Both the position numbers and the translations under genes were made by a program. From Candidatus Uhrbacteria bacterium (GTDB lineage Bacteria > Patescibacteriota > Patescibacteriia > UBA9934 > GWF2-40-263): a stretch of 54,870 nucleotides of DNA. Numbering within the stretch: the first letter of the stretch is position 1; each line of letters starts with the position of its first letter. The DNA lies in contig JACPHU010000023.1 in NCBI GenBank assembly GCA_016188495.1, forward strand, positions 1 through 54,870. Direction: 5' to 3'. The notes beneath the pieces are model-generated. The model worked only from the letters and a program-made list of their open reading frames with translations. It was not told the DNA's origin and searched no databases. This document shows, in pieces, positions 213-42,443 of this stretch.

Positions 213-324
213 TTTCCCGTTGACATTTTACACTAATTCTATTGACAAAATGCTGGTTTTATAGTATCTTTCGCCGTTACAAAAACTCTTTTTTAAGGCG
301 TTTTTTAAGCATGATTTTGTCATC

Positions 325-1233
325 ATGGTTAAAAAAGGCTTTATAAAGCCTGAAACGAAACCTAAACAAAAGAGGAAACGCATGGAGCTCCGAGTACCCA
401 GAGAAGGCCATATCTATCGTGACAGTGATGGCAGCGTGGTAGTCACGGTGCAAGGTGACAAAAGGCACAAAATCGAACAACTCAGGAATTTGCAATGCCT
501 GACTCCTGACTACGAACCAAGGTTACAAATATGGGAGAGAAGATTTTTTACACGAAGACTCTATCTCCCTGGAGAATACGAGGCTGCGCGTGCGCACCTG
601 TATCCATCGCCTGAGACGTTAGTCCTGGCCGCGAACGGATATACGGACTTCGTCCAGGCACCCGGAACGCCCAGCCAACAAGAGTATGTCGACTGGAGCC
701 AGGAGATGATCGAAGGGTTAATCCTGACCTTGCGTCAAAAAGTCCCAAACATGGGTATATCCCTGGTGCAGGGCAGTATCTTGCAGGGAATCGACCAAGC
801 CATTATCCAAGCGGGACTGAGACTAGAAGTTCCGATGCTGGGATTCAGTTGTCCCTCTTGGATGTTCGGGTTCGACGACGACGAAGAGGCGTTCCCAATC
901 TTTGTCGGAAAGGATCCCCAAGAGTATTCCAGATTTTTCGCACACGATCCGGACGTACTGTTGACCTTCAACGGATCAGATCAGTGCTTCCGCGAGGCTG
1001 TGCGGATGCTTGAACGCGGGAAGCTCGTGTTCCCGGTAGACATCCTTGACCTGATAAGTCGCGGGAATGGACCCGCGAGTTTCAATCCTGACGGAGGCAT
1101 GACCAATGCCTCAAGAGTTCTCAATAGACTTGTCCGGTTGGAAGACAGGCCTTTCTCGACGAACTGTCAAAACCGGCAAGACCGGCTCAAAAAATGGATA
1201 GACAGGGTCGCCACATCGATCCTAACTCGTTGA
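325..1233 (+). CDS. SLOG/LOG-like (YpsA / MoCo-carrier-like Rossmann) putative nucleotide-ligand-binding protein
   Basis: 302-aa ORF. The central pattern LVQGSILQGIDQAIIQAGLRLEVPMLGFSCPSW then DVLLTFNGSDQCFREAVRMLERGKLVFPV resembles SLOG/LOG superfamily G-x-GxD and GG-x-T-x-E strands. An alternative start at ATG 382 has a GAGGA RBS 5 nt upstream. Confidence 0.35.
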   Translation: MVKKGFIKPETKPKQKRKRMELRVPREGHIYRDSDGSVVVTVQGDKRHKIEQLRNLQCLTPDYEPRLQIWERRFFTRRLYLPGEYEAARAHLYPSPETLVLAANGYTDFVQAPGTPSQQEYVDWSQEMIEGLILTLRQKVPNMGISLVQGSILQGIDQAIIQAGLRLEVPMLGFSCPSWMFGFDDDEEAFPIFVGKDPQEYSRFFAHDPDVLLTFNGSDQCFREAVRMLERGKLVFPVDILDLISRGNGPASFNPDGGMTNASRVLNRLVRLEDRPFSTNCQNRQDRLKKWIDRVATSILTR

Positions 1234-1246
1234 CAACGACTTTTAC

Positions 1247-1290
1247 TTCCGGTCCAGCTTCTTCAAAAAGCGCTGGACCGGAACATTTTC
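1247..1290 (+). terminator. intrinsic terminator after the SLOG-like gene
   Basis: 12-bp perfect stem TTCCGGTCCAGC (1247-1258) / GCTGGACCGGAA (1272-1283) followed by CATTTTC. Confidence 0.6.
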
Positions 1291-1395
1291 AACTCCAGAG
1301 ACATACACCTCATAATTTTGAGGTCTATATCTCTCCTCACGAACAAATGCTCGCGAGGAATCGTTCTCTAAGTACCTACAAAAAAGGAGAAAATC

Positions 1396-2817
1396 GTGCT
1401 GAAATCTCGTGTATTATATCTGGTTGGCGGAAGCCTCAATCCATCTGGAAAACACCACAAAGAAATGGTGCAGATAATTCAACCCATCTGCACAGGAGAC
1501 GATCTGATCGTTGTCGTGCCCTGTGGTATGAGACCTGATAAAGACACGACCAATGACATTAGTCCTATTCATCGGGCAGCAATGTGCACCATGACATTTG
1601 CCGGAATGGATAGGGTGATCATCGACCTCTCTGACCTGGAGAATACTGAATTCACCCGGACATGGGATTTGGAAGAGCGCTACCAACGTCTCTATCCGAA
1701 CGCAAAAATTGTTCACGTCATCGGAGCCGACCTTATCAAAGGTGGGCGGGCCGGAAATTCAGAAATTCATACATGGTATAAGGGCCCTGATCTCTTGAAC
1801 AAATCTAATTTCCTCGTCTTTCCACGAGGAGAAGAGTTGGACAAGAACGATCTCCCTTACAACCACCGGATAATTGAAACCCAGATCCATGGATCGAGTA
1901 CAGAAATTCGCAAGCTTCGAATGGAACGCGAATCGATAGAGGACCTCGTCACTCCAGCTGTAGCTGAATATATAAACCGCTGGCATTTGTATACCGGACG
2001 GCCCTCTTCGTTTGAAGCGACCCAATTCTGTCCCAAAGGTCGCGCCGACGTCATCATTGATAGAAAGCAGCCTCAAGCCTTGGAAATCCTGAAGATCGTC
2101 GAGAGAGTATACTCATCCCGAACAGGTCCGATAGATCATCTCATCGTGATCGGCGGAGACGGTTTTATGCTGGACGCGATCAACAAATTCCATCACCGCT
2201 GTCTCCCCTTTTTGGGATTAAATGCCGGAACGGTTGGGCATCTACTCAATAACGGTGGAAATGAGACAATCGAACGCTGTCTTCAAGCTTCATCATTCCA
2301 CTTACATCAATCCCCGTTGCTCTACGCCCAGGCAACAGGAGAAGATGGGAAAACCCATTCCGTATATGCGTTCAATGATCTCTTCCTGCGTACAGACACG
2401 CAATCAGCTGGATGGATGCAGGTTTCTGTGAACAAAAAGGTTCGCTTTGAACGCATGATGGGAGATGGGCTCATGCTCTCCACTCCTGCCGGTTCCACTG
2501 GCTGGGCGTACAAAAAAGGAGCCACACCTGTCATGATCGGCACGCCGCAAATCGTTCTGACTGGCGACGGTGTCAGCGATGATCGAGGAATCCGTTGGGT
2601 CAGTGCACCTCTTTCCAATACAGCCATTGTGGAAGTGGATGTGTTGGAATCATGGCGTCCCATGATTCTTGTTGTGGATGGTCACGAAGACGAATCCATT
2701 GGACGAGTCAAAAACGTGATCATGAGACAATGCCATGCCCATGCGGTAGAGCTCACCTTCTTTCCGGAAACGAACCTTGCAGAAAAAATCACCCGCCTTC
2801 AATTCGGAGGCATCTAA
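1396..2817 (+). CDS. bifunctional nicotinate/nicotinamide mononucleotide adenylyltransferase - NAD+ kinase fusion
   Basis: GTG start with AAGGAG RBS. The N-terminal half has GGSLNPSGKHH (nucleotidyltransferase HxGH-type motif) and SSTEIRKL (ISSTxxR motif). The C-terminal half has LIVIGGDGFML (NAD kinase GGDG) and GDGLMLSTPAGSTGWAYKKGATPV. Confidence 0.75.
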   Translation: MLKSRVLYLVGGSLNPSGKHHKEMVQIIQPICTGDDLIVVVPCGMRPDKDTTNDISPIHRAAMCTMTFAGMDRVIIDLSDLENTEFTRTWDLEERYQRLYPNAKIVHVIGADLIKGGRAGNSEIHTWYKGPDLLNKSNFLVFPRGEELDKNDLPYNHRIIETQIHGSSTEIRKLRMERESIEDLVTPAVAEYINRWHLYTGRPSSFEATQFCPKGRADVIIDRKQPQALEILKIVERVYSSRTGPIDHLIVIGGDGFMLDAINKFHHRCLPFLGLNAGTVGHLLNNGGNETIERCLQASSFHLHQSPLLYAQATGEDGKTHSVYAFNDLFLRTDTQSAGWMQVSVNKKVRFERMMGDGLMLSTPAGSTGWAYKKGATPVMIGTPQIVLTGDGVSDDRGIRWVSAPLSNTAIVEVDVLESWRPMILVVDGHEDESIGRVKNVIMRQCHAHAVELTFFPETNLAEKITRLQFGGI

Positions 2818-2827
2818 CACCTCTTCC

Positions 2828-2868
2828 CTGCGGACCAGTGACCTCACTGATCCGCAGCGGAATTTTTA
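2828..2868 (+). terminator. terminator-like hairpin after the NMNAT-NADK gene
   Basis: CTGCGGA-C-CAGTG (2828-2840) pairs with CACTG-A-TCCGCAG (2845-2857), loop ACCT. The T-run 2863-2867 is slightly displaced. Confidence 0.45.
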
Positions 2869-2970
2869 CAAAGACCTGTGCTCAACCCATTGAGCCTAGA
2901 TCTTTCCTCGTAAGGAAAAGGACTTATGAGGACGTGATCTTTCCAATCGAAGTAGAAAGAAGGAAAAAAC

Positions 2971-4077
2971 ATGAACCAAAAACATCGACGGTTTCAAGGG
3001 TCTCTCATGGGTGTCCGAATCGGAGATACTCTGGGTATGCCCTGGGAATCCATGAGCCACGAGAGCATTCTCGAGGCGACTGGACCTCTTGGCATCACCA
3101 CCTTTTGGAATCCGCAACAGAGGAACGATGCTCCGCCATGGACGCAGGGACTTAAGAGTCTGAATCCTGGCGATTACACCGACGACTGGCAAATGACCAG
3201 GGCGGGGGTAAAAAGCTACATCCATTGCAGTGGTTTTGATCTCCACCATTTAGCACTCAGCTATTTGGAAGAGATGGAACTCTCCAGACTAGGATGGGGT
3301 GGAACCACCCTGGCGGGAATGGAACGGGTGAAGAACTGGATGAGTGAAGGCCACTCAAATCTTCCCGTCAGCCTGCTGTCACACCAACTCGACACGGGCT
3401 CAGGCAATGGCGTGGTGATGCGCATCGCTCCCATGGCGTTGATGAACTACCGTTTGTACCTGGAAAAAAGACATCGCTTTTCAGGCATTCCTACCCCATT
3501 GCAACATGTCATTTGGGAAGTAGGAGGCCTGACGCATCCAGACCCTCGAGCCACCATCGGCGCCTTTGCCGTGGCAAGCTTGATCGCAAAAATCGTCTCT
3601 TTCGACAACGTAGTAACCGACCAAAAAACGCTTCTGTGTTTGCTGGATGGAACCCTGCAAGAAGTTCTCTTTATGGAAGAGAACAAGTGCCGTACGTTTT
3701 TTTCGCAAATACAAGCAGAGAGGTTTTCATCACGCCTGGCACAGATCAGCCAAGCGATCATTTCTGGAATATCGGCAGACGAAGTCCGTACTCAATTTGG
3801 AACATCCAGTGTTACTCTTGAGTCTGCAGCGTTTTCGATCGCCACGTTCTTGCGGCATCCGACGGATTTCAAAGCCGCACTCAAGGAGGCGGTAGAAGCC
3901 GGAGGCGATACCGATACAAACGCGGCAATCGTGGGAAGTCTGGTAGGGGCCAATGTGGGCCTGCACGGAATTCCCAAAGAATGGGCGGCCTTCCGCGAAG
4001 ATTTTGCGGAAGCGGAACGTCTAGGGGTAAGCCTCTGGACGACCTGCCAAAGAATTCATCAACCCCACAGGAGATAA
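2971..4077 (+). CDS. ADP-ribosylglycohydrolase (ARH/DraG family)
   Basis: N-terminal GVRIGDTLGMPWE and C-terminal GGDTDTNAAIVGSLVGANVGLHGIPKEW are the family's characteristic metal-binding motifs. 368 aa. Confidence 0.8.
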   Translation: MNQKHRRFQGSLMGVRIGDTLGMPWESMSHESILEATGPLGITTFWNPQQRNDAPPWTQGLKSLNPGDYTDDWQMTRAGVKSYIHCSGFDLHHLALSYLEEMELSRLGWGGTTLAGMERVKNWMSEGHSNLPVSLLSHQLDTGSGNGVVMRIAPMALMNYRLYLEKRHRFSGIPTPLQHVIWEVGGLTHPDPRATIGAFAVASLIAKIVSFDNVVTDQKTLLCLLDGTLQEVLFMEENKCRTFFSQIQAERFSSRLAQISQAIISGISADEVRTQFGTSSVTLESAAFSIATFLRHPTDFKAALKEAVEAGGDTDTNAAIVGSLVGANVGLHGIPKEWAAFREDFAEAERLGVSLWTTCQRIHQPHRR

Positions 4078-5376
4078 GTGATGGACAAAAAAAAGAATCG
4101 TCATGTTCTGGAACCGATTGTCCGCAATCTGGCGGACATCGACTTCTACAAGCTGACGATGCTTCAATTTATCTGGTGGTTTTTCTCGAAAGAAGTCGTA
4201 ACGTTCCGTTTCAAAAACAGAACGGACGTTCAGCTTCTGGATTATATCGATCTGGATGAGCTCAAACGCCAGCTCGACCGTGTCACCAAAATGCGGTTTC
4301 CCAAATGGGCGACGGCGGAGCTGAAACGAAGATATAGCCACCTGTTCAGCGACAATTTTCTTAGCTGGTTAGGCGAGCTACGTCTTCCTCAGGCGAGCGT
4401 AGAAATCGTCGACGGAAATCTCCTATTGGAGGTCACGGGCCCATGGCCGGAAGTCATGCTCTGGGAAACGATTGCGATGTGCATCGTCAACCGAATGTAT
4501 AAACTGGCAAAAATGTCAGAGTTGAAACTCGAAGAAAAAGTTGTTCTTGTCGAGGGTCTTCATCGAGCAGAGGTAAAGTTTGAAAGACTTTCGAAATATC
4601 CAGATCTGGTTTTTGTAGATTTCAGCACCAGACGGCGACATAGTTATGAACATCAGGAAGCCGTCCTGCGCACTGCCATGCGGATGATCCCGAATCAACT
4701 TAAAGGCACGTCCAATGTACTACTGGGCCTACGGCTGAAACTGCCGCTTGTGGGCACCATGGCGCACGAGCTGCCCATGGCCTTCCAGGTTCTCTTCTGG
4801 GATGAGGACGAGAAGTCTGAACGACTCGTCTCACAGGCAAAACTCTGGAAAATGTGGGAGGAATTCTACGGCGGTGCCTTGACGATCGCCCTTCCGGATA
4901 CCTATGGCAACGATTTCGGACTTGAGGACTTCAAGCCGTTCGCTGCCAAGTGGGCTGGTCTGCGTCACGACTCAGGCGACCCGTTCGAGTTCGGCGAGAA
5001 GGTCATCGCGTTTTATAACTCGCTGGAGATCGACCCAAAAGAGAAGACGGTCGTCTTCTCCGACGGCCTCACCGATGAAACAATGATCCAATTGTGGATA
5101 CGATTCCACGACCGCATCAATCTCAGCTTCGGCTGGGGAACCCATATGGGCAATGACATGGGGTTTGATGTCTGGCCCGATGGTGACCGAGGTCTCAAAG
5201 CCTTGTCGATCGTGATGAAGTTGGTGGCTGTTTTGAAAGATGGCCGTATGGTCGGCACAGTCAAACTCTCCGACAACCCGAGCAAAGCCTCGGGTCCGCA
5301 AGAGATGATCGAGCGGATCATGCGCAAAACCGACTACGACTTCGCCGCGCACGAAACCGTGGCATGCGAAGTCTGA
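4078..5376 (+). CDS. pncB: nicotinate phosphoribosyltransferase
   Basis: DFYKLTMLQ near the N-terminus, then GTMAHE and RHDSGDP. The GTG start directly abuts the TAA of the upstream gene (4075-4080 TAAGTG), which suggests translational coupling. Confidence 0.85.
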   Translation: MMDKKKNRHVLEPIVRNLADIDFYKLTMLQFIWWFFSKEVVTFRFKNRTDVQLLDYIDLDELKRQLDRVTKMRFPKWATAELKRRYSHLFSDNFLSWLGELRLPQASVEIVDGNLLLEVTGPWPEVMLWETIAMCIVNRMYKLAKMSELKLEEKVVLVEGLHRAEVKFERLSKYPDLVFVDFSTRRRHSYEHQEAVLRTAMRMIPNQLKGTSNVLLGLRLKLPLVGTMAHELPMAFQVLFWDEDEKSERLVSQAKLWKMWEEFYGGALTIALPDTYGNDFGLEDFKPFAAKWAGLRHDSGDPFEFGEKVIAFYNSLEIDPKEKTVVFSDGLTDETMIQLWIRFHDRINLSFGWGTHMGNDMGFDVWPDGDRGLKALSIVMKLVAVLKDGRMVGTVKLSDNPSKASGPQEMIERIMRKTDYDFAAHETVACEV

Positions 5377-5390
5377 CCCTACAACTCTCT

Positions 5391-5485
5391 CCATGAACCC
5401 CTCGGTTCATGGCTTTTCTCCACCACACCGAGGTTTCTCTCGGATGGTGAAGGTGAAGAATGTTCGTTACAAAGGAATATCCATG
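5391..5485 (+). repeat. structured intergenic cassette, copy A (terminator-like hairpin + CTTTTCTCCACC + second hairpin + GGTGAAGAAT + RBS + ATG)
   Basis: hp1 is CCATGAACC (5391-5399) / GGTTCATGG (5404-5412). The inner stem is CCGAG (5428-5432) / CTCGG (5439-5443). GGTGAAGAAT lies at 5452-5461 and the AAAGGA RBS precedes ATG 5483. Confidence 0.7.
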
Positions 5486-6538
5486 AAAAAATATCCGAGA
5501 CATATCGTCGTATTCATCGATATTCCGGATCCTGATAATTTCGTCCTATTGATTGTTCTGGGAATGCTATTTCCCCTTGCAAAAATGCATGTAGTGATTA
5601 CGGGTCGCCCCGTTCACCCAAACCCGTCCAAGAAAATCAAAACGTGGGAATGGGATGCGAATTTTTCTGAAGATGTCCTGAAGGTCAACGCAGGTCGGAC
5701 AAGAAACCTGCTTAAAATCTTTAAGATGAGCGCGAAGCTCTACCATGGAGGGATTGCGCCCAGAACTCCCGTGCCGCATTGGATGCACTTCCATGAGTAT
5801 TACAGGCTGGCTGATATTGATCCTGTTGTGGCTCTGCACAACGGACAAATGGAAAGTCTGAGCAAGCTGGCAAAAGAGCTTCTGAAGCTAGACGACCAGT
5901 CTGTTGCCGTTGTCGTGGGTGGACCCATGACAGGCCTGGCACAGTTGGTCAATCTGAATCCGGATGTGGCGAAAAAATTCTCCGAAGTCCACGCGATGTT
6001 CGCCTCCTGGGGAACCACAGAGCTTGCGAGTTTTGACGGGACATCCCGCGGAAAGAAGCAATTCAACGTGGACTGTGATCCGCAAGCGGCCTTCCAGGTT
6101 CTGACGGGACTCACCTGCCCCATCTACCTATTGCCCACCGAGGTCACGCGCGTAAGCGAAATCGGATTCCAAAATCCGAAAGCTCTGTGCGAGATCATGG
6201 GGAACTCACGCACAGAAAAAGCGAGGCTTATCCTACGGCTGTACGAGCTGTGGCATACAGTCACCGTGGAGAAAAAACAAAAAACGAATCCGTCTGAAAT
6301 GCTGTTTATCCACGACATGTCCGCAGGGCTGAGTCTGTGTCCTGAACTTCGGGAAGCCATCTATCAGTTCACCCCTATCGAGATTGATTCCGTCCCGCAT
6401 CTGGCACACGAAGCCGAGCATTGGGGGGAAGTACTCATGCGTCCGACGAATCGGCAAACCAACCGTTTTTCCGCAACAGGACTCCAACCAAACGGCACGG
6501 AACACTATTTGAACGTTCTGCACAATCTGTTCGCTTGA
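5483..6538 (+). CDS. inosine-uridine-preferring nucleoside hydrolase (IUNH) family protein, divergent
   Basis: VVFIDIPDPDNFVLL (degenerate DxDxxxDD), GGPMTGLAQLV, QFNVDCDPQAAFQVL and IHDMSAG match the IUNH block order. I chose the start at ATG 5483 (AAGGA RBS). The longer ORF from 5393 would begin inside the terminator hairpin. Confidence 0.65.
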   Translation: MKKYPRHIVVFIDIPDPDNFVLLIVLGMLFPLAKMHVVITGRPVHPNPSKKIKTWEWDANFSEDVLKVNAGRTRNLLKIFKMSAKLYHGGIAPRTPVPHWMHFHEYYRLADIDPVVALHNGQMESLSKLAKELLKLDDQSVAVVVGGPMTGLAQLVNLNPDVAKKFSEVHAMFASWGTTELASFDGTSRGKKQFNVDCDPQAAFQVLTGLTCPIYLLPTEVTRVSEIGFQNPKALCEIMGNSRTEKARLILRLYELWHTVTVEKKQKTNPSEMLFIHDMSAGLSLCPELREAIYQFTPIEIDSVPHLAHEAEHWGEVLMRPTNRQTNRFSATGLQPNGTEHYLNVLHNLFA

Positions 6539-6551
6539 ACAAAAATCCTAT

Positions 6552-6646
6552 CCACGAACCATCGCGGTTCGTGACTTTTCTCCACCGATCCGAGATCAAC
6601 TCGGACGATGGAGGTGAAGAATCGTTCGCAAAAGGAGACATCCATG
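6552..6646 (+). repeat. structured intergenic cassette, copy B
   Basis: hp1 is CCACGAACC (6552-6560) / GGTTCGTG (6566-6573), then CTTTTCTCCACC, CCGAG..CTCGG, GGTGAAGAAT (6612-6621) and AAAGGAG RBS with ATG 6644. It aligns along its length with copy A. Confidence 0.7.
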
Positions 6647-7378
6647 TCGCTATGCCAAAAAATCAACGAATGGTGCAAACGTTTTGTAAGAAGCGTACGG
6701 AACTACACCGGTCTCTCTACCCAAAAGTCCGATGCTCGTTTTACGAAAGCAGATACCCTTTTGAAGGGTTTCCTCCAGGTGGAAGAATGGGACGGAGGCC
6801 TCTCTTTTCCGCTGGTGGTCGTCCGTGCCAGCGACTCGATCGTGGGACTGCTCTATGACGCGACCAACGATCGCATTCTGCTCGTCCGCCAGTACCGTGC
6901 GCCCATGGTTCGGGAAGACAATCCAGAGGGCGCCATCACAGAGCTCGTGGCCGGGCGTTTCGACGTGAATCTCGGACCCAAGGCGCTTCTCGTGAAGGAA
7001 GCTAAGGAGGAAGCCGGAGTCAAGATCACGGAAGACGAGGTCGAACTCATCAACCTGGGCGTACCCATGTCGCTCTCTGCCGGTGTTCTGACCGAACGCT
7101 GCTACGGCGGTTTCGCTGTCATTCATCCCGATCGTATCGCCGAGGGTGACGAGAACTACGGTGTGGATGAAGGTGAGAATATCTGTCGGGTCTGGATGAG
7201 CACCGAGAAGTTCATCTCCCCCAACACCATCCACGATTGCTGGCGCGTCTACGCCATGGCCCAGTTGCTGGCCCGTCGTCGTCTGGAAGCCAAGCTTGTT
7301 CAGTTGGAAGAGGAACTCAACAATCATCGAATCGATCGGATCGTACGAGCATCTGCTCCCCATGGACATGGATGCTAA
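6644..7378 (+). CDS. Nudix hydrolase, ADP-ribose pyrophosphatase-like
   Basis: Nudix box GRFDVNLGPKALLVKEAKEEAGV. Start at ATG 6644 with AAAGGAG 6 nt upstream. Confidence 0.7.
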   Translation: MSLCQKINEWCKRFVRSVRNYTGLSTQKSDARFTKADTLLKGFLQVEEWDGGLSFPLVVVRASDSIVGLLYDATNDRILLVRQYRAPMVREDNPEGAITELVAGRFDVNLGPKALLVKEAKEEAGVKITEDEVELINLGVPMSLSAGVLTERCYGGFAVIHPDRIAEGDENYGVDEGENICRVWMSTEKFISPNTIHDCWRVYAMAQLLARRRLEAKLVQLEEELNNHRIDRIVRASAPHGHGC

Positions 7379-7386
7379 TCTCTCTC

Positions 7387-7487
7387 CCCGTCCCCGAGTC
7401 TGACTCGGCACGACGGGACTTTTCATCGATCACCCACAGGTATGTGTGATCGATGCTGAAGACCACAAACAGAAGGATACCCTCGTG
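7387..7487 (+). repeat. structured intergenic cassette, copy C (diverged)
   Basis: The outer stem CCCGTC (7387-7392) / GACGGG (7412-7417) encloses CCGAGT..ACTCGG, followed by ACTTTTC. hp2 is CATCGATCAC (7424-7433) / GTGATCGATG (7446-7455). Then come CTGAAGACC, AAGGA RBS and GTG 7485. Confidence 0.55.
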
Positions 7488-8543
7488 AACATCCAACGCT
7501 CCTTTCAATCGTTGAAAATCGTTTCTTTAACCGTTGCTCTGCATGCGGTGAGAGGATTGCTTCGTTTGAGCGAAACGGAAGGTCAGACGACAGAAGCCAC
7601 AAAGCGTCCTATCGCCCACGGTTCCGGCCAAATGCGGGCTCAGTCGATCTCAATCCAACTCTCAGATCGTACGCGTTGCACGGCGGGATGTCGGTTTTGC
7701 ATCAGCCGAACCACGCCTGGAACCGCGAATGCGGAAGTTCGCAATCTCAAAATCTGCGACATGGACCGACTGCGCGTTGGCTTCAACTATGCCAAGCAGC
7801 TGGGTGCCACCCACGCTGTTTTGACAGGTCGAGCCGATCCCACGCAGGAGGATGAAATCTATCTGCTGAAGGTGGTGCAAACGGCCAGAGAGTATCTGCC
7901 ACTGGTGGACATGCACACCAACGGATTCCTACTCTTGGACGGCAAGTCCAAGGACTACATGCTCGAGCGACTTAGAAATGCAGGGCTCACCATGATCACC
8001 CTGTCGATCGCTCATCATGAGAATGAGAAGAATCGCGAGCTCATGATCCAGAAGCAGAGTGCCGCCTCCCTGATCAAGAGAGCGCGCGATCTGGGACTGT
8101 TGGTCCGAGTGTCGGTCGTCATCAATCGCCAGGGAATCGTGGACGTTGATGGTCTCATGGAATACATCCGAGAGCTCGGAAATCTCGGCGCCCAGATGGT
8201 CGTCGTACGCGAAGTCTGGCGACCGGAGGTCTACGGCGAGTGGAATACCGAGGTCTACCAGTGGAATCACGATAACTGGATCGACATCGGTCCCCTCCAG
8301 GAAGAGTTCCACCGGATCGCTTCCCAGAAAAACAACACGCATGGCTTGCGCGAAGGTAATCCACTCCCCTGGGGTACACCTGTATTCCTGGTAGGCGGCA
8401 TCTTCGAAGATCCCACACACGGCGTGAACGTGACCTTCGCTCGATGCGAAGAAGCCGTCGGGACGGTCATGAAGTCCATCGTTCACAAGCCAGATGGTCA
8501 CGGCTATCGCAATTGGGATCATAACGGAGATGTTCTCTACTGA
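7485..8543 (+). CDS. radical SAM enzyme of unassigned function (MoaA/viperin-like core plus a Trp-rich C-terminal extension)
   Basis: CTAGCRFC gives the CX3CX2C cluster motif, followed by HAVLTGRADPTQ, VDMHTNGFLL and ITLSIAHHE core strands. I chose GTG 7485 as the start by analogy with the RBS spacing in cassette copies A and B. The ORF is open from 7446 and an internal Met lies further downstream. Confidence 0.6.
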   Translation: MNIQRSFQSLKIVSLTVALHAVRGLLRLSETEGQTTEATKRPIAHGSGQMRAQSISIQLSDRTRCTAGCRFCISRTTPGTANAEVRNLKICDMDRLRVGFNYAKQLGATHAVLTGRADPTQEDEIYLLKVVQTAREYLPLVDMHTNGFLLLDGKSKDYMLERLRNAGLTMITLSIAHHENEKNRELMIQKQSAASLIKRARDLGLLVRVSVVINRQGIVDVDGLMEYIRELGNLGAQMVVVREVWRPEVYGEWNTEVYQWNHDNWIDIGPLQEEFHRIASQKNNTHGLREGNPLPWGTPVFLVGGIFEDPTHGVNVTFARCEEAVGTVMKSIVHKPDGHGYRNWDHNGDVLY

Positions 8544-8568
8544 TCTGATCCAGAGTCCAACAACCACT

Positions 8569-8682
8569 GGGTGAGCCCTGCTCGCCCCTTTTCTCAACAA
8601 GTGGAAATTTCTCAACTTGTTGAGGTGAAGAGAAATGAAAAATATGCGCCAGATACCATAAACACCGGAGGAACACGTAGTG
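8569..8682 (+). repeat. structured intergenic cassette, copy D
   Basis: hp1 is GGGTGAGC (8569-8576) / GCTCGCCC (8580-8587), followed by CTTTTCTCAAC. hp2 is CTCAACAAGT (8593-8602) / ACTTGTTGAG (8615-8624). Then come GTGAAGAGAA, GGAGG RBS and GTG 8680. Confidence 0.6.
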
Positions 8683-9747
8683 CCTCAAAATATCATGTAC
8701 ATCGGCGAATTCGGAAATGATCCGGATGAAGAAAGTTCCCTTCTGTTTTTATTGGGTTTGGTCAGACTCAAACTCGTGAAGCTGCTTGCAGTCATTGCCA
8801 ATCGTTCTCCCGCGATCATGCGGGCGCGTCTGGCCAAAGGAACCTTGGAGATGCTCGGTTTTCCACAGATTCCCGTTATTCAAGGCACAGACTGCGGACA
8901 ACATCGCCAGGAGGATGACCGCATCCAATTTGCGGCCACGTATCTGAGCGACGCGCCAGAATTTCCCAAATTGGATGCCTTCTGGGACTTGCTTTCCCAG
9001 GCACAGGATCATTCTGTTGCTCTCGTGTGTGCATCGGGCCTGACAGATATCGCTCTGCTTCTGGCTCGCAACACCACACACTCCAAAGAACGACTGCGTC
9101 TGTTCAAACAAAAAATCGCCCGAGTCTCAATCATGGGAGGGGTGGTCAACGATCAGAATCAAATCCTTCTGGATGAAGATGGTCGGGTGATGCCTTCGTG
9201 GGATGCGACCAACAATCAGCACGACCGCATCGCCGAGTACGTGTATACGCAACTCCAGCGAATGGAAATCGAACTGATTGTTGTGACCAAACAGGCAGCG
9301 TATGCCGCACCTGTCCCACGCGAAATGTATCGGAACCTCGCCCGTCGGCATCATCCGGTGGGCGTGAGACTCGAACGCATCCAAAAAGGAATGATCCAAC
9401 ATCTGTGGTGGAGATGTAATCTTCCACCTGAATCCCCTGCACGAGATGGTCTTCCGCCGGAGTTGGGAACCCAGTGGTTCTCCAATGCCTTCTGCCGAGG
9501 GAAAAACCTTTCAAACATAAAACCGACGGACGAAATCTGGGAATATGTTGAGGTATTCAACCTCTATGATCCGATGGCTGTCATGGCGGCCATCCCGGAA
9601 ATCTCTGGGCAACATTTCGATCCGATCTTGATAAATGGAGGAAAAGTACAGGTAATCGGCATGAACCGTCAGTACCATCAAGTCTCTAAACCAGCAAAGA
9701 CGGCTGGCTTCCTGGAAGCCGGTATGCTCAGAGGGTTATTAAAATAA
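8680..9747 (+). CDS. IUNH-fold nucleoside hydrolase-like protein with a degenerate N-terminal Asp cluster
   Basis: YIGEFGNDPDEESSLLFL (the first Asp of DxDxxxDD is replaced), CASGLTDIALLLA, VSIMGGVV, ATNNQHDRIAEYVY and LYDPMAVMAAI follow the IUNH block order. Confidence 0.55.
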   Translation: MPQNIMYIGEFGNDPDEESSLLFLLGLVRLKLVKLLAVIANRSPAIMRARLAKGTLEMLGFPQIPVIQGTDCGQHRQEDDRIQFAATYLSDAPEFPKLDAFWDLLSQAQDHSVALVCASGLTDIALLLARNTTHSKERLRLFKQKIARVSIMGGVVNDQNQILLDEDGRVMPSWDATNNQHDRIAEYVYTQLQRMEIELIVVTKQAAYAAPVPREMYRNLARRHHPVGVRLERIQKGMIQHLWWRCNLPPESPARDGLPPELGTQWFSNAFCRGKNLSNIKPTDEIWEYVEVFNLYDPMAVMAAIPEISGQHFDPILINGGKVQVIGMNRQYHQVSKPAKTAGFLEAGMLRGLLK

Positions 9748-9904
9748 CACCCCCCGCGAGCCAAGTTGACGGGGTATTTACTCTGAAGGAATAAACGCTC
9801 CCCTGATACTCTCAGGGGCTATTACGCGAGAGAGTGAAAGAATTCATTTCGCTCCCTCACTAAGTAGTCAATGAATCGTTCTTTAAACAAACAAGGAGCA
9901 ACGT

Positions 9905-11929
9905 ATGAGTGTCTCGATTCAGAAAGTACAAGGTCGTCAAAAAAGTTTAGGATTTGCCCGCGTAGCAGCGGCCACGTTCTGGACCAAGCCGATGGGTGTA
10001 TCCGAAAATCTCGAGAAACATTGGGAGATGGCACAGTGTGTCGACGATGAACATATTCAGCTGATGGCGTTTCCAGAACTCGGACTATCCGGCTACGGGT
10101 GTCGCAATGCGTTTCGCGAACGCGCCCTTCAAATCGCTTCTCTGGAGGCTCTACAGGAATTCTGTGGTCTTACCAAAACCAGCACGGCCACCTTTGTTCT
10201 GGGATTGCCTTTGGCACTCAATCGTCTATTCAATGTGGCAGCGGTTGTCAATCAAGGTCGTGTCATCGCCTTCATCCCGAAAAGCTTCCTCGCTGCTCGC
10301 AGTGAATGGCAAGAGGACGAATGGTTTTCCCCCGCAAGCGAACTCCAGACCAATCAAGTGAAACTTCCTTGGCAAGACGAACCCGTTCCTATCGGCACGG
10401 ATATTCTCATATCGGTATGCGGTAAGGATGCAGAAGAACAATTTATCATGGGAGTAGAGATCTGCGAGGATGGTTGGCAGGCCAACTCCCCTGGAGACCG
10501 TCATGCGCACAACGGCGCAACGGTCATCGTGAATCTCTCAGCATCCAACTGGGTACTTGGAAAAGACCAATGGCGTCTGATTCAATTCCCTGCCAACTCC
10601 GGTCGCCAGAAGTCCGCTTATATCTATGTGACAATGGCAGGCGACTCGACCTCCAGCGTTGTGTGGGATGGACAATGTTTTATCGCTGAGGATGGGAACA
10701 TTCTTGCACAGACGACGCGTTGGAAAAAACCCAGGGAAAGTGAGCTCATCACGACGGACGTCGATATTCAGAAACTTCACCATGATCGCGAGATGGACGG
10801 TGGATGGGGAGAAGCAACACGCCTGAATCAGCATCCATACAGACAAGTTCAAGCGAACGTGCGTTCTTGGGAAGTCGACAATCTGCGTCGACCGCTTCCT
10901 CGTTTGCCTTTTGTTCCCAAAGATCCAAACGTCATGCGCAAAGTGGGTGAAGAGCTGTTCAATGCTCTGGCCCAGGGCGTGATCGGACGTCTGTGGCACG
11001 TTGGCAAAGGCCAGCCGTTTGATGCCTACATGGGACTCTCTGGCGGACTGGATTCCGCGCTTGCCTTCCTGGTGAGCGTTTATGCCTACGACCAGATGGG
11101 GTGGAATCGCAAACACCTGCATGCCGTGCGACTGCCGGGACCTGCTTCTGGCAAACGGACGCAGGACAATTCCCTCAAGCTTGCCAAAGCTCTGGGAACC
11201 GGGATCCATACGGCGAACATCACTCGTCTGGCGACCCAGGCTCTGCGCGACGCGGGACACGAGCCTTGTTGGCAATGTTTGCAATGCGAAAACGCCCAGG
11301 CGCGAGCCAGGACGTATATTCTCAAAACGATGGGGTTTAATCTCGGAACCGGGGATATGAGCGAGGCGGCCAAGGGCTGGTGTACCGAAGGCGGTGATCA
11401 ATCCAGTCACTTTCACGTCATTGCAAACATCCCCAAGACGCTCGTGCGATATCTGGTCAGGTACTACATCGAGCATCTGGCAGGTGATGTGAAAACAAAA
11501 AAGACGCTCGAAAGCATCCTCAACACGCTCATTTCGCCAGAGCTCGTGAAGGTCGAACCTGGCCAGCAGATCCAGTCCTCTGAAGATAAAGTCGGCCCTT
11601 ATGAGCTGACAGACTTCTTCATGAACCACATGCTGCGAACAGGGGCGGATCCTGCAAGGATCGCATTCCTGGCCAAAATCGCCTTCAGTCGCAAGGAGTC
11701 TGAGGGAGATATCGTCTATGACTCTGCAACCATCCTCAAATGGCTGCGAGACTTCTATGTCCAGTTCGGCAGAGCACAGTTCAAAAGAAATGCGAGTCCG
11801 GATTTTGTCCTCGTCGCTACTCTGGGACTTGGTGCACACGACAAGTGGCGCTGGCCTTCTGATGGTTCCATGCAAATATGGACGGATGAAGTAGAACTTC
11901 TCCAGGAAATAGAGAAGAACAGCGACTGA
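9905..11929 (+). CDS. nadE: glutamine-dependent NAD+ synthetase (CN-hydrolase domain + NAD synthase domain)
   Basis: N-terminal FPELGLSGYGC and VEICEDGW (nitrilase-type Glu and Cys). C-terminal GLSGGLDSA PP-loop. 674 aa. Confidence 0.85.
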   Translation: MSVSIQKVQGRQKSLGFARVAAATFWTKPMGVSENLEKHWEMAQCVDDEHIQLMAFPELGLSGYGCRNAFRERALQIASLEALQEFCGLTKTSTATFVLGLPLALNRLFNVAAVVNQGRVIAFIPKSFLAARSEWQEDEWFSPASELQTNQVKLPWQDEPVPIGTDILISVCGKDAEEQFIMGVEICEDGWQANSPGDRHAHNGATVIVNLSASNWVLGKDQWRLIQFPANSGRQKSAYIYVTMAGDSTSSVVWDGQCFIAEDGNILAQTTRWKKPRESELITTDVDIQKLHHDREMDGGWGEATRLNQHPYRQVQANVRSWEVDNLRRPLPRLPFVPKDPNVMRKVGEELFNALAQGVIGRLWHVGKGQPFDAYMGLSGGLDSALAFLVSVYAYDQMGWNRKHLHAVRLPGPASGKRTQDNSLKLAKALGTGIHTANITRLATQALRDAGHEPCWQCLQCENAQARARTYILKTMGFNLGTGDMSEAAKGWCTEGGDQSSHFHVIANIPKTLVRYLVRYYIEHLAGDVKTKKTLESILNTLISPELVKVEPGQQIQSSEDKVGPYELTDFFMNHMLRTGADPARIAFLAKIAFSRKESEGDIVYDSATILKWLRDFYVQFGRAQFKRNASPDFVLVATLGLGAHDKWRWPSDGSMQIWTDEVELLQEIEKNSD

Positions 11930-11943
11930 TCATGAAAGAATCA

Positions 11944-11972
11944 ACCGCTCACACACGTGTGAGCGGTTTTTA
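11944..11972. terminator. bidirectional intrinsic terminator between convergent nadE and dtd
   Basis: ACCGCTCACA (11944-11953) / TGTGAGCGGT (11958-11967) followed by TTTTTAT. Confidence 0.7.
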
Positions 11973-12416
11973 TATATCCAAAATAATGGTCGTAGGACCG
12001 TCATTGATAAGAGCGACTTCCATCATCTGACCAAACCTCCCTGTCTCTACGGTGATTCCAAGTGTTCGAATCTTCTCAATCACCGCTTCATAAAACGGGA
12101 TAGCCTTTTCAGGACGGGCCGAGGTAATGAAACTCGGACGGTTTCCCTCAGAGCAATCCCCATAGAGAGTAAACTGGGAAACCAAAAGAATCGAGCCCTC
12201 TATATCCTGGACGCTGCGCGACATTTTCCCTTCTTCATTTTCAAAAATACGAAGCTGTACAAGCTTCCGCGCCATTTTTTCAATCTTATCTTCGGTATCA
12301 TCCTGATGAATCGCTAAAAACACCAGCAACCCCTGGCTAATGGATCCAACCATTTCCCCCTCAACTCTGACAGAAGCTTGTTTCACTCGTTGTATGACTG
12401 CGCGCATAGTCTTCAT
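11970..12416 (-). CDS. dtd: D-aminoacyl-tRNA deacylase
   Basis: MRAVIQRVKQASVRVEGEMVGSISQGLLVFLAI... is the typical Dtd N-terminus. 148 aa. Confidence 0.85.
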   Translation of the reverse strand: MKTMRAVIQRVKQASVRVEGEMVGSISQGLLVFLAIHQDDTEDKIEKMARKLVQLRIFENEEGKMSRSVQDIEGSILLVSQFTLYGDCSEGNRPSFITSARPEKAIPFYEAVIEKIRTLGITVETGRFGQMMEVALINDGPTTIILDI

Positions 12417-40883: not shown

Positions 40884-42443
40884 ATGTTATTTGAAATTAT
40901 TTTAGTCATTATTGCTATCCTGCTTGGAGGAGGCATCGGCTACGCACTGCGAAAAGCTCAAGGAAAAAAATCAGCAGACCAAGCCGAAACACGAGCAGAA
41001 AAAATACTTGCGGAAGCCAAAGTCAAACAACAGGAAATCCTCCAGGAAACAAAAACACGTGAACAAGAGGTTCTTATTCAGGCGAAAGAAAAAGCCCTAA
41101 AAATAATCGACGAAGCCAAACAAGATGAACAAAGTCGTCGCAGAGATCTTCAGGACCAACAACGAAGACTAGAAAAACGAGAATCACTCTTCGATCAAAA
41201 AATCCTGGAGGTCGAAGACAAGAAAACGAAATTAGAAGAAAAAAGTAAAGAAATAGAAAGCATAAAACAAAAAATTACTCAGATAAAAGAAGAACAATCT
41301 GCAAAACTTCAGGAAATTGCGGGAATGAATAAAGAACAGGCGGAACAAAAATTATTGCACGCTATCGAACAGGATTCCCAAGAAGCTCTCATGAGCCGCC
41401 TGCGCAAATTAGAACAAGACAATGAAGAAGAGCTGGAGATAAAGTCTAGAAAAATCCTCTCTTTGGCTCTTACCCGCTATGCGTCTTCTGTCTGCAGCGA
41501 TACCACCACCACAGCGGTAGAGCTTCCAAATGACGAAATGAAAGGTCGTATCATTGGAAAAGAAGGACGTAATATCAAAGCGATTGAAACCCTCACGGGA
41601 ACAGAAATTATTGTCGACGATACCCCTGAACTCATCACGATTTCTGGTTTCTCCCCTATTCGCAGACAAGTCGCCAAACGAGCGCTAGACGAACTGATTA
41701 AAGACGGCCGAATTCATCCCGCGCGTATCGAAGAAGCGATTGCAAACGCAAAAAAAACAATTGCAAAAGATCTCCGAAAAGCAGGTGAAGAGGCCCTGTA
41801 CCAACTGGGAATTCCGGTTTCTTCCATCGATCCAAAACTGATCTCTATTTTGGGTCGTATGAAATACCGTACCAGTTACGGTCAAAACGCACTCCAACAT
41901 TCCATCGAAGTAGGAACGATCGCCGGAATGATTGCTGAAGAACTCGGAGCCGATGTGTTTATCTGTAAAAAAGGCGGTCTCTTCCATGACATCGGGAAAG
42001 CCGTGGACCACGACATGCAAGGAGCACACCCGGAAATCGGATACAACATCATGAAAAAATTCGGATTCCCGGAAGAACTTTGCTATCAATCCATTGCCCA
42101 CCACGAAGACCGTCCTCGAACCATCGAGGGAGCTGTGGTCAAAGCCGCTGACGCCATTTCAGGAGCCCGGCCTGGAGCGCGCAAACAAAGCCTTGAACAA
42201 TTCATTCAGCGTATGGAAGAACTTGAACGCACGGCTTCTGCTTTTGAGGGAGTTGAGAAAGCGTATGCGATTCAGGCCGGACGAGAAGTACGCGTGTTTG
42301 TCCAACCAGATAAAATCGATGATTTGACCGCTTATCGACTGGCAAAAGACGTGGCAACCAAAATCGAGGCAGAACTGTCTTATCCAGGCGAAGTAAAAGT
42401 AACGGTCATTCGAGAAACGCGAGTCATCGAATTTGCAAAGTAG
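40884..42443 (+). CDS. rny: ribonuclease Y
   Basis: N-terminal TM helix, K/E-rich coiled coil, KH motif GRIIGKEGRNIK and an HD domain (LFHDIGKA, HHEDRP). Confidence 0.9.
   Translation: MLFEIILVIIAILLGGGIGYALRKAQGKKSADQAETRAEKILAEAKVKQQEILQETKTREQEVLIQAKEKALKIIDEAKQDEQSRRRDLQDQQRRLEKRESLFDQKILEVEDKKTKLEEKSKEIESIKQKITQIKEEQSAKLQEIAGMNKEQAEQKLLHAIEQDSQEALMSRLRKLEQDNEEELEIKSRKILSLALTRYASSVCSDTTTTAVELPNDEMKGRIIGKEGRNIKAIETLTGTEIIVDDTPELITISGFSPIRRQVAKRALDELIKDGRIHPARIEEAIANAKKTIAKDLRKAGEEALYQLGIPVSSIDPKLISILGRMKYRTSYGQNALQHSIEVGTIAGMIAEELGADVFICKKGGLFHDIGKAVDHDMQGAHPEIGYNIMKKFGFPEELCYQSIAHHEDRPRTIEGAVVKAADAISGARPGARKQSLEQFIQRMEELERTASAFEGVEKAYAIQAGREVRVFVQPDKIDDLTAYRLAKDVATKIEAELSYPGEVKVTVIRETRVIEFAK

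Follow-up and report, generated by a model that had tools for sequence, protein, structure and literature searches.

What do the repeated hairpins between the genes of a nicotinamide adenine dinucleotide (NAD)-related operon in a Candidatus Uhrbacteria genome do? The stretch analysed here, the 54,870 nt of contig JACPHU010000023.1 and hereafter called the window, is Patescibacteria chromosome near Uhrbacteria. It carries housekeeping genes including IF2, LeuRS, RNase Y and ComEC, and the closest matches of its LeuRS and radical SAM proteins come from Candidatus Uhrbacteria and other Patescibacteria. Nine co-directional genes on the + strand (325-11929) form an NAD-related (NAD-salvage) operon. 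Five consecutive + strand spacers of this operon (5377-9904) each contain a GC-rich hairpin, H1, abutted by a second hairpin, H2, and we refer to the pair as the cassette. We give an even chance to the view that the cassettes are cis-acting RNA punctuation between the cistrons of the polycistronic NAD-salvage mRNA. The cassette most likely tunes the expression of each gene of the operon.

Twin hairpins in five consecutive spacers

The original prediction proposed a shared two-hairpin architecture, and this could be read directly in the sequence of all five spacers, copies A to E, of which E is degenerate. Two abutting hairpins were present in the minimum-energy fold of every window copy, with z-scores of -2.2 to -4.8. 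H2 is ~45 nt long, and its basal helix is formed by the tract that follows H1 (CUUUUCUCC) paired with a purine run (GGUGAAGA). The CTTTTC and (G/C)TGAAGA anchors of the original prediction are therefore the two strands of the H2 basal helix, so that the tract after H1 is re-paired by H2. The hairpins of the five copies are as follows.

5391-5412, + strand: copy A H1, a 9-bp GC-rich stem in the minimum-energy fold, 14 nt past the NAPRTase stop codon (5374-5376)
5413-5459, + strand: copy A H2, the CUUUUCUCCACC strand paired with GGUGAAGGUGAAGA, apical stem CCGAG/CUCGG
6553-6573, + strand: copy B H1, 8 bp, a paralogue of copy A H1
6575-6620, + strand: copy B H2, fold z = -4.8, with the ribosome-binding site (RBS; 6632-6637) and ATG (6644) outside
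7387-7417, + strand: copy C H1, a bipartite 12-bp stem, 8 nt past the NUDIX stop codon
7419-7462, + strand: copy C H2, CUUU/GAAG base, apical stem CAUCGAUCAC/GUGAUCGAUG unrelated to those of A and B
8569-8587, + strand: copy D H1, 8 bp, from terminator scan and fold
8588-8631, + strand: copy D H2, CUUUUCUC/GAGGUGAAGA base, apical stem CAACAAGU/ACUUGUUG
9800-9818, + strand: copy E H1 (degenerate copy), 7 bp, upstream of NadE
9819-9867, + strand: copy E H2, anchors now CUAUU/AGUAG with the pairing kept, abutting H1 with no linker

Copies A and B were identical at 82/112 positions from stop codon to start codon. The compensatory change claimed for their H1 stems, T5394-A5409 in A against C6555-G6571 in B, proved real both in the sequence and by alignment folding, which also confirmed the pairs of copy A H1. 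As in copy B, the RBS (5471-5477) and ATG (5483) that follow copy A lie outside H2. The claimed spacing of ~12 nt between H2 and the RBS holds for A, B and C but not for D, where the RBS GGAGG (8667-8671) is 36 nt past H2. The pattern CTTTTC-N15-45-TGAAGA had 5 matches on the two strands of the 54.9-kb window compared to 0.92 expected, and 0/100 shuffles reached 5. The four consecutive spacers A-D account for 4/5 of these matches.

H1 is a GC-rich stem-loop directly after a gene, as expected of a terminator, and copy A H1 was terminator-like in the terminator scan. The U-tract CUUUUCUCC has 4 consecutive U; a simple terminator scan passed A, B and D, but not C. Eight-codon mini open reading frames (ORFs) after H2 in A (5460-5486) and D (8635-8661) were considered as candidates and rejected, since neither copy B nor the close relatives L030 and L031 (related loci are numbered with an L) conserve them. 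These mini-ORFs begin 0-3 nt past the GGUGAAGA run, and in A the mini-ORF ends on a stop codon that overlaps the start codon of IUNH1.

Covariation, conservation and anatomy in related clusters

Genome contigs were scanned with a radical SAM alignment, which gave 21 loci from Uhrbacteria, Falkowbacteria, Komeilibacteria, Buchananbacteria and others, all with variants of the NAD cluster. The cassette was present in the equivalent internal spacers of more than 20 related clusters. An H2 covariance model, constructed in two rounds (R1, R2), detected 38 sense-strand copies in 22 sources, every one of them in a spacer of the same gene cluster. Window copies A (5405-5464, 55.7 bits), B (6567-6625, 48.6 bits) and D (8580-8636, 58.3 bits) scored 49-58 bits, while copy C was a weak match (7411-7467, 16.7 bits, E = 0.12). 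Strong sense-strand matches, which comprise the seed and closely related copies, scored 48-79 bits compared to 14-26 bits on the antisense strand, where matches were limited to the palindromic apex.

Covariation was quantified on an alignment of 18 sequences which had been fitted to the model, so that pairing is somewhat inflated. Paired cells made up 88.8% of this alignment compared to 39-52% with slid partners, and 10/17 H2 pairs were changed on both sides; 0/500 shuffles reached the observed values. Independent MAFFT/RNAalifold folding of the window's nearest relatives returned the same two hairpins, with double-sided changes at 9/26 pairs of the A/B family and at 2 pairs of C. The close relatives showed G-C/C-G and A-U/G-C swaps in copies B and C, including a G-C to A-U swap in copy B H2 relative to L030 and the two doubly changed pairs of copy C H2 relative to L031. 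The expectation that a functional element would recur with covariation in homologous islands was thus borne out by the 38 copies and the doubly changed H2 pairs. Strand assignment by thermodynamics or G-U counts was tried and was neutral: the sense strand was more stable in 14/38 cases, and G-U pairs numbered 69 vs 64 in the strand comparison. Since these strand-asymmetry tests are neutral, the strand is set from context, and it is from context that we infer RNA, not DNA, to be the active form.

H2 is also constrained at the sequence level. In the spacer between the NUDIX and radical SAM genes, H2 together with the RBS was identical at 50/51 positions in four genomes whose radical SAM four-fold sites were 44-62% identical. 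In the same four genomes the adjoining H1 was wholly replaced. When L003 was compared with L008, the best-conserved 60-nt interval of the locus was the one bearing H2. The conservation of H2 exceeds that of synonymous sites, its loop and its C-A and C-U mismatches included. A coding origin was ruled out: in L003 an in-frame stop codon precedes the radical SAM start, and orthologues differ by 1-2 nt in their spacing.

The element is restricted to the operon. An objective search for two abutting simple hairpins was run on the window, on L033/L034 (one contig) and on L035/L036; it found them in 22/28 in-cluster co-directional spacers vs 4/28 elsewhere (Fisher p = 2.4e-6). The second-round model (R2) had no matches in the remaining ~43 kb of the window beyond the 11.6-kb cluster, nor in L034 or L036. 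This remainder of the window contains ordinary single hairpins with at least 6 T, and no twin hairpins. A metagenome scan for the exact H2 sequence gave 8 matches, of which 5 were in the same cluster and 3 were chance matches in unrelated ORFs.

A survey of 39 cassettes revealed the anatomy of the family. H1 has 6-15 bp and its folding energy has a median of -10.8 kcal/mol; it mostly starts 7-25 nt past the stop codon, which falls inside H1 in 7/35 cases. The linker between H1 and H2 is 0-2 nt, and the two hairpins remain abutted even in lineages without a U-run. H2 keeps a length of ~41-52 nt despite unrelated sequences. Constant throughout are the gene-matched orientation, the stop-to-start placement, the 0-2 nt linker, the pyrimidine/purine base of H2 and a fast-evolving H1. 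The U-run of relatives has 3-6 U, compared to at least 6 T in canonical terminators of the same window; in an intrinsic terminator a U-rich tract of ~7-9 nt would be expected right behind the stem.

Stem sequences follow lineages. The H2 consensus in one Uhrbacteria group is CUUUUCUCCACYCGCCGAC-loop-GUCGRCGYGUGAAG, and paralogous copies in one genome share lineage-specific stems, such as CCACGAGC...GCUCGUG in L033 and CGCCGAC...GUCGGCG in L003-L008. Copy C H1 is identical in L030 and L031, and the apical stem of copy D replaces the A/B-like stem of the same two relatives.

In 21/39 cassettes the start codon lies 2-15 nt past the 3' GAAG of H2, and the purine strand of the basal helix is the Shine-Dalgarno (SD) sequence itself, as in GAAG|GAGnnnnnnnATG, GAGGTGAAGAtATG, GAAG|GAG..ATG and GAGGUGAAGAuAUG.

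The surroundings of the hairpins have further features. CAAC occurred in the 16 nt upstream of H1 in 17/53 cassettes compared to a background of 6.8% (p = 4e-8; for example at 5383-5386 and 8557-8563 of the window), and the 9 nt preceding H1 were strongly G-depleted in the 53 cassettes. Upstream spacers of L018 (1348-1546, 2963-3174) and L019 (1023-1246, 2690-2916) have a second hairpin with arms of ~60 nt, which consist of GTAGAAAG-type tandem repeats and their complement. Two spacers upstream in the window's cluster (1247-1359 and 2828-2932) have a different, three-hairpin layout, in which a terminator-like hairpin is followed by AUUUUCAA or AUUUUUAC and after that by two further hairpins. 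This layout has conserved counterparts in L002 (3720-3879) and upstream of NAPRTase in L004, L005 and L008, and includes a recurring CUCACGAAC...GUUCGUGAG hairpin which is like H1 of copies A and B.

The NAD cluster and its boundaries

The gene products of the cluster and the signals at its ends are listed below.

325-11929, + strand: nine genes, for a hypothetical protein; an NAD-kinase-like protein; ADP-ribosylglycohydrolase; NAPRTase; IUNH1 (nucleoside-hydrolase-like); NUDIX; radical SAM; IUNH2 (a second nucleoside-hydrolase-like protein); and glutamine-dependent NadE
242-270, + strand: sigma-70-like promoter match TTGACA-17-TATCTT, a consensus match only, and the sole + strand match ahead of the cluster
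11943-11968, either strand: canonical bidirectional terminator, an 11-bp stem then T-runs, 3' of NadE

The operon likely starts at the promoter-like site at 242-270, and the terminator at 11943-11968 is predicted to close it after NadE. A scan of the + strand from 271 to 12000 found no promoter-like sites in the spacers. The terminator at the operon end has long T-runs, in contrast to the short CUUUUC tracts of the internal cassettes. A 26-nt inverted repeat with 85% complementarity lies at 290-347, between the promoter-like site and the first start codon (325), and may serve the operon as an operator or as a leader hairpin.

Gene order and content vary among the related clusters, and the cassettes are always at the junctions. 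L030, whose radical SAM protein is 95% identical to that of the window, has the arrangement NAPRTase-cassette-NUDIX without IUNH1 (window 5483-6538 compared with L030 1-560), and its single cassette is a hybrid whose 5' flank resembles A and whose H1 resembles B. In L031 a different gene lies upstream of a near-identical copy C. Both cases lend support to the modular-cassette idea of the original prediction. Judged from these arrangements, units of a cassette plus a gene appear to be gained or lost at cassettes, and the cause is likely homologous recombination between repeats, such as between A and B of the window in the case of L030.

The composition of the cluster is distinct. Its GC content is 5-8 points above that of the surrounding genome in three different genomes: 51.6 vs 46.2 in the window (325-11929 vs 11970-54870), 58.5 vs about 49-52 for L033 vs L034, and 49.3 vs 41.7 for L035 vs L036. 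The cluster is also a mosaic. NadE of the window (gene 9905-11929) is 60% identical to that of L016 and ~38% to those of L003-L005, while the radical SAM protein (7485-8543) shares ~61-72% identity with its counterparts in L001-L005 and L008 and 50% with that of L016.

Possible functions of the cassettes

The original prediction had suggested a search of Rfam, and this gave 0 matches at gathering score in the whole window and 0 at E <= 10 in 5300-10000, NAD+ riboswitches, fourU and T-box included. The cassette is a member of no family tested, and our literature searches found no description of either the element or the NAD/ADP-ribose cluster. Mimicry of tRNA or tmRNA was looked for and none was found. 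A three-way junction between the 5' flank of H1 and the 3' flank of H2 was rejected, with a mean run of 1.88 compared to 2.00 for shuffled partners.

If the cassettes are RNA punctuation, H1 would be a weak intrinsic terminator with a short U-tract, suppressible by a nearby ribosome, or would shield the upstream cistron from 3' exonucleases. H2 would form a hairpin where the next cistron begins, and the 0-2 nt linker would leave no single-stranded RNA between the two hairpins. H2 would hide the pyrimidine tract CUUUUCUCC and, in many lineages, the RBS (the GGUGAAGA or GAAGGAG purine run). Together, H1 and H2 could set the transcription, survival and translation of each downstream cistron, giving graded gene-by-gene output from one promoter. 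The hairpins might be opened or cut by the ribosome, RNase III, RNase Y or another factor.

Known elements offer partial parallels. Leaky intercistronic terminators and attenuators gated by ribosome proximity, such as that of mccA-mccB (PMC4231749), likewise have a GC-rich hairpin and a U-tract a few to ~25 nt past a stop codon, and stand within an operon between co-directional genes with no promoter behind. Terminators a few bp past a stop codon are repressed by the ribosome, and this position effect was measured for terminator tR2 (PMC4824070). Unlike these terminators, the cassettes have a U-run of just 3-5 nt, which distant members lack, and a conserved H2 that in every case re-pairs the tract; the element also recurs ahead of nearly every gene of one operon. 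SD-sequestering hairpins, including fourU thermometers (RF01795), similarly pair a U run with a purine-rich RBS in the second of two hairpins near the start codon. Unlike fourU thermometers, the cassettes are between cistrons and not in a 5' leader, lack a match to the family at the E-value given above, and have a helix of ~20 bp that is far more stable; the RBSs of the window are moreover outside the hairpin. REP/BIME elements are also tandem palindromic units in intercistronic spacers and could stabilise upstream mRNA, but REP is genome-wide with one consensus, whereas the cassettes differ in sequence and occur in one operon only.

Several points weigh against punctuation as the whole explanation. 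The U-run is short, at 3-5 U, and the distant clusters L006, L014, L017 and L020 keep the twin hairpins without any U-run, suggesting that termination is not the ancestral core function. In window copies A-D the RBS lies 11-36 nt beyond H2 and is unpaired by it, so that these hairpins do not mask their own RBS and masking would not be the whole function in the window; the window and its close relatives retain the purine run although the real RBS lies further on. A row of seven leaky terminators would leave the distal genes severely short of transcription. Neither folding energy nor G-U counts speak for the sense strand. H2 is more conserved in sequence, its loops as well, than a mere spacer hairpin would require, and generic punctuation leaves the restriction to one operon unexplained. 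These last two points keep a site for a trans-acting factor or ligand in play.

Such a site, at the H1/H2 junction or the H2 base, would be read by an operon-specific RNA-binding protein or by an NAD/ADP-ribose metabolite in a riboswitch-like manner, and all cistrons would be switched together. We consider this candidate unlikely. It fits an element confined to this operon in three genomes, an H2 conserved far above synonymous sites with its loop and mismatches included, and a basal helix kept where the RBS is no longer inside (window A, B and D; L030 and L031). The lineage-specific stems common to paralogous copies would fit co-evolution with a factor. However, apical stems are unrelated within one genome (C and D vs A and B) or swapped between 95%-identical relatives, which leaves the short basal helix as the only possible common site. 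The scanned cluster proteins showed no RNA-binding domain, H2 is a simple hairpin without an evident ligand pocket, the Rfam search returned no riboswitch, and a repeat ahead of every gene would be unusual for riboswitches. A putative RNA processing site, cut at the H1/H2 junction by an RNase Y type enzyme or within the ~20-bp H2 by an RNase III type enzyme, is in our view a little less probable still. The upstream cistron would keep H1 as a 3' cap and the downstream one would gain a 5' hairpin or a freed RBS, by analogy with phage T7 early RNase III sites. Those sites and selective RNA processing/stabilisation elements are also repeated intercistronic cassettes with a conserved lower helix and variable upper stems, and the hairpins here are likewise placed to cap the 3' and 5' ends of processed cistrons; they differ from T7 sites in being two separate abutting hairpins and not one with an internal loop, and cleavage here is predicted only. 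The abutment kept even without a U-run, the narrow H2 length, which is compatible with an RNase III stem, and the purine run or SD in the 3' strand of the H2 base, where a cut would release it, are consistent with processing, and RNase Y is encoded in the window (40884-42443). Conversely, no RNase III gene was seen in the window, the abutted hairpins offer no single-stranded target for an RNase Y or RNase E type enzyme, and some related spacers (L018, L019) have much longer second hairpins. Processing overlaps with RNA punctuation and does not exclude it.

Two further explanations place the function in DNA. The spacers could be recombination substrates that move or delete a cassette plus its gene, with RNA structure secondary, which we regard as improbable. 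The missing IUNH1 and single hybrid cassette of L030, the other gene upstream of copy C in L031, the variable gene order and content with cassettes at the junctions, the differing affinities of NadE (to L016) and radical SAM (closest to L001-L005) and the raised GC of the cluster would all suit this. Integron attC sites, a looser parallel, similarly keep structure while sequence varies, with one element per gene and gene-element units apparently gained and lost. However, the attC core-site pair RYYYAAC and GTTRRRY was on neither strand of the five spacers, and Pfam scans of the window genes and the gene lists of related loci revealed no integrase or other recombinase next to the clusters, the window starting 324 nt before its cluster. 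In addition, gene order is largely conserved across phyla-level relatives, the cassettes always have the orientation of the genes and are tied to stop codons and RBSs, and the rearrangements are accounted for as a by-product of ordinary homologous recombination between similar repeats. We think it very improbable that a DNA-binding NAD regulator such as NrtR uses the palindromes as its operators. Hairpins are inverted repeats in DNA and the strand-asymmetry tests were neutral; moreover, the 13-gene NAD cluster of the syntenic relative L033 (GCA_900089805.1) begins with a NUDIX + WHD_NrtR gene (L033 4854-5525) and is followed by Dtd on the opposite strand. Among the loci, NrtR was found in L033 only, and none is inside the window, which begins just before the cluster. 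The operator reading was rejected on the grounds that the palindromes differ between the spacers of one genome, so that one dimeric factor could not read all of them, and that the window NUDIX resembles ADP-ribose pyrophosphatases with no winged-helix match. NrtR boxes are not known to be arranged as intra-operon operators ahead of every gene with fixed asymmetric anchors.

To our knowledge, gene regulation in Patescibacteria is almost unexplored, with very few recognisable regulators. The cassette is one conserved RNA-type element with up to about ten copies in one operon, constraint above synonymous sites and no Rfam family, and it gives a testable handle on how expression is set within an operon in reduced genomes. 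It also flags a conserved, modular NAD/ADP-ribose gene cluster which is seemingly undescribed. A bolder and tentative possibility, which we think unlikely, is that the cassettes are a new class of operon-specific regulatory RNA in candidate-phyla-radiation bacteria, in which an NAD/ADP-ribose protein or metabolite would read the basal helix and junction and switch all cistrons, while the repeats would also serve as joints for gene-module exchange. Should a ligand or protein indeed read it, the cassette would represent a new class of regulatory RNA linked to NAD metabolism.

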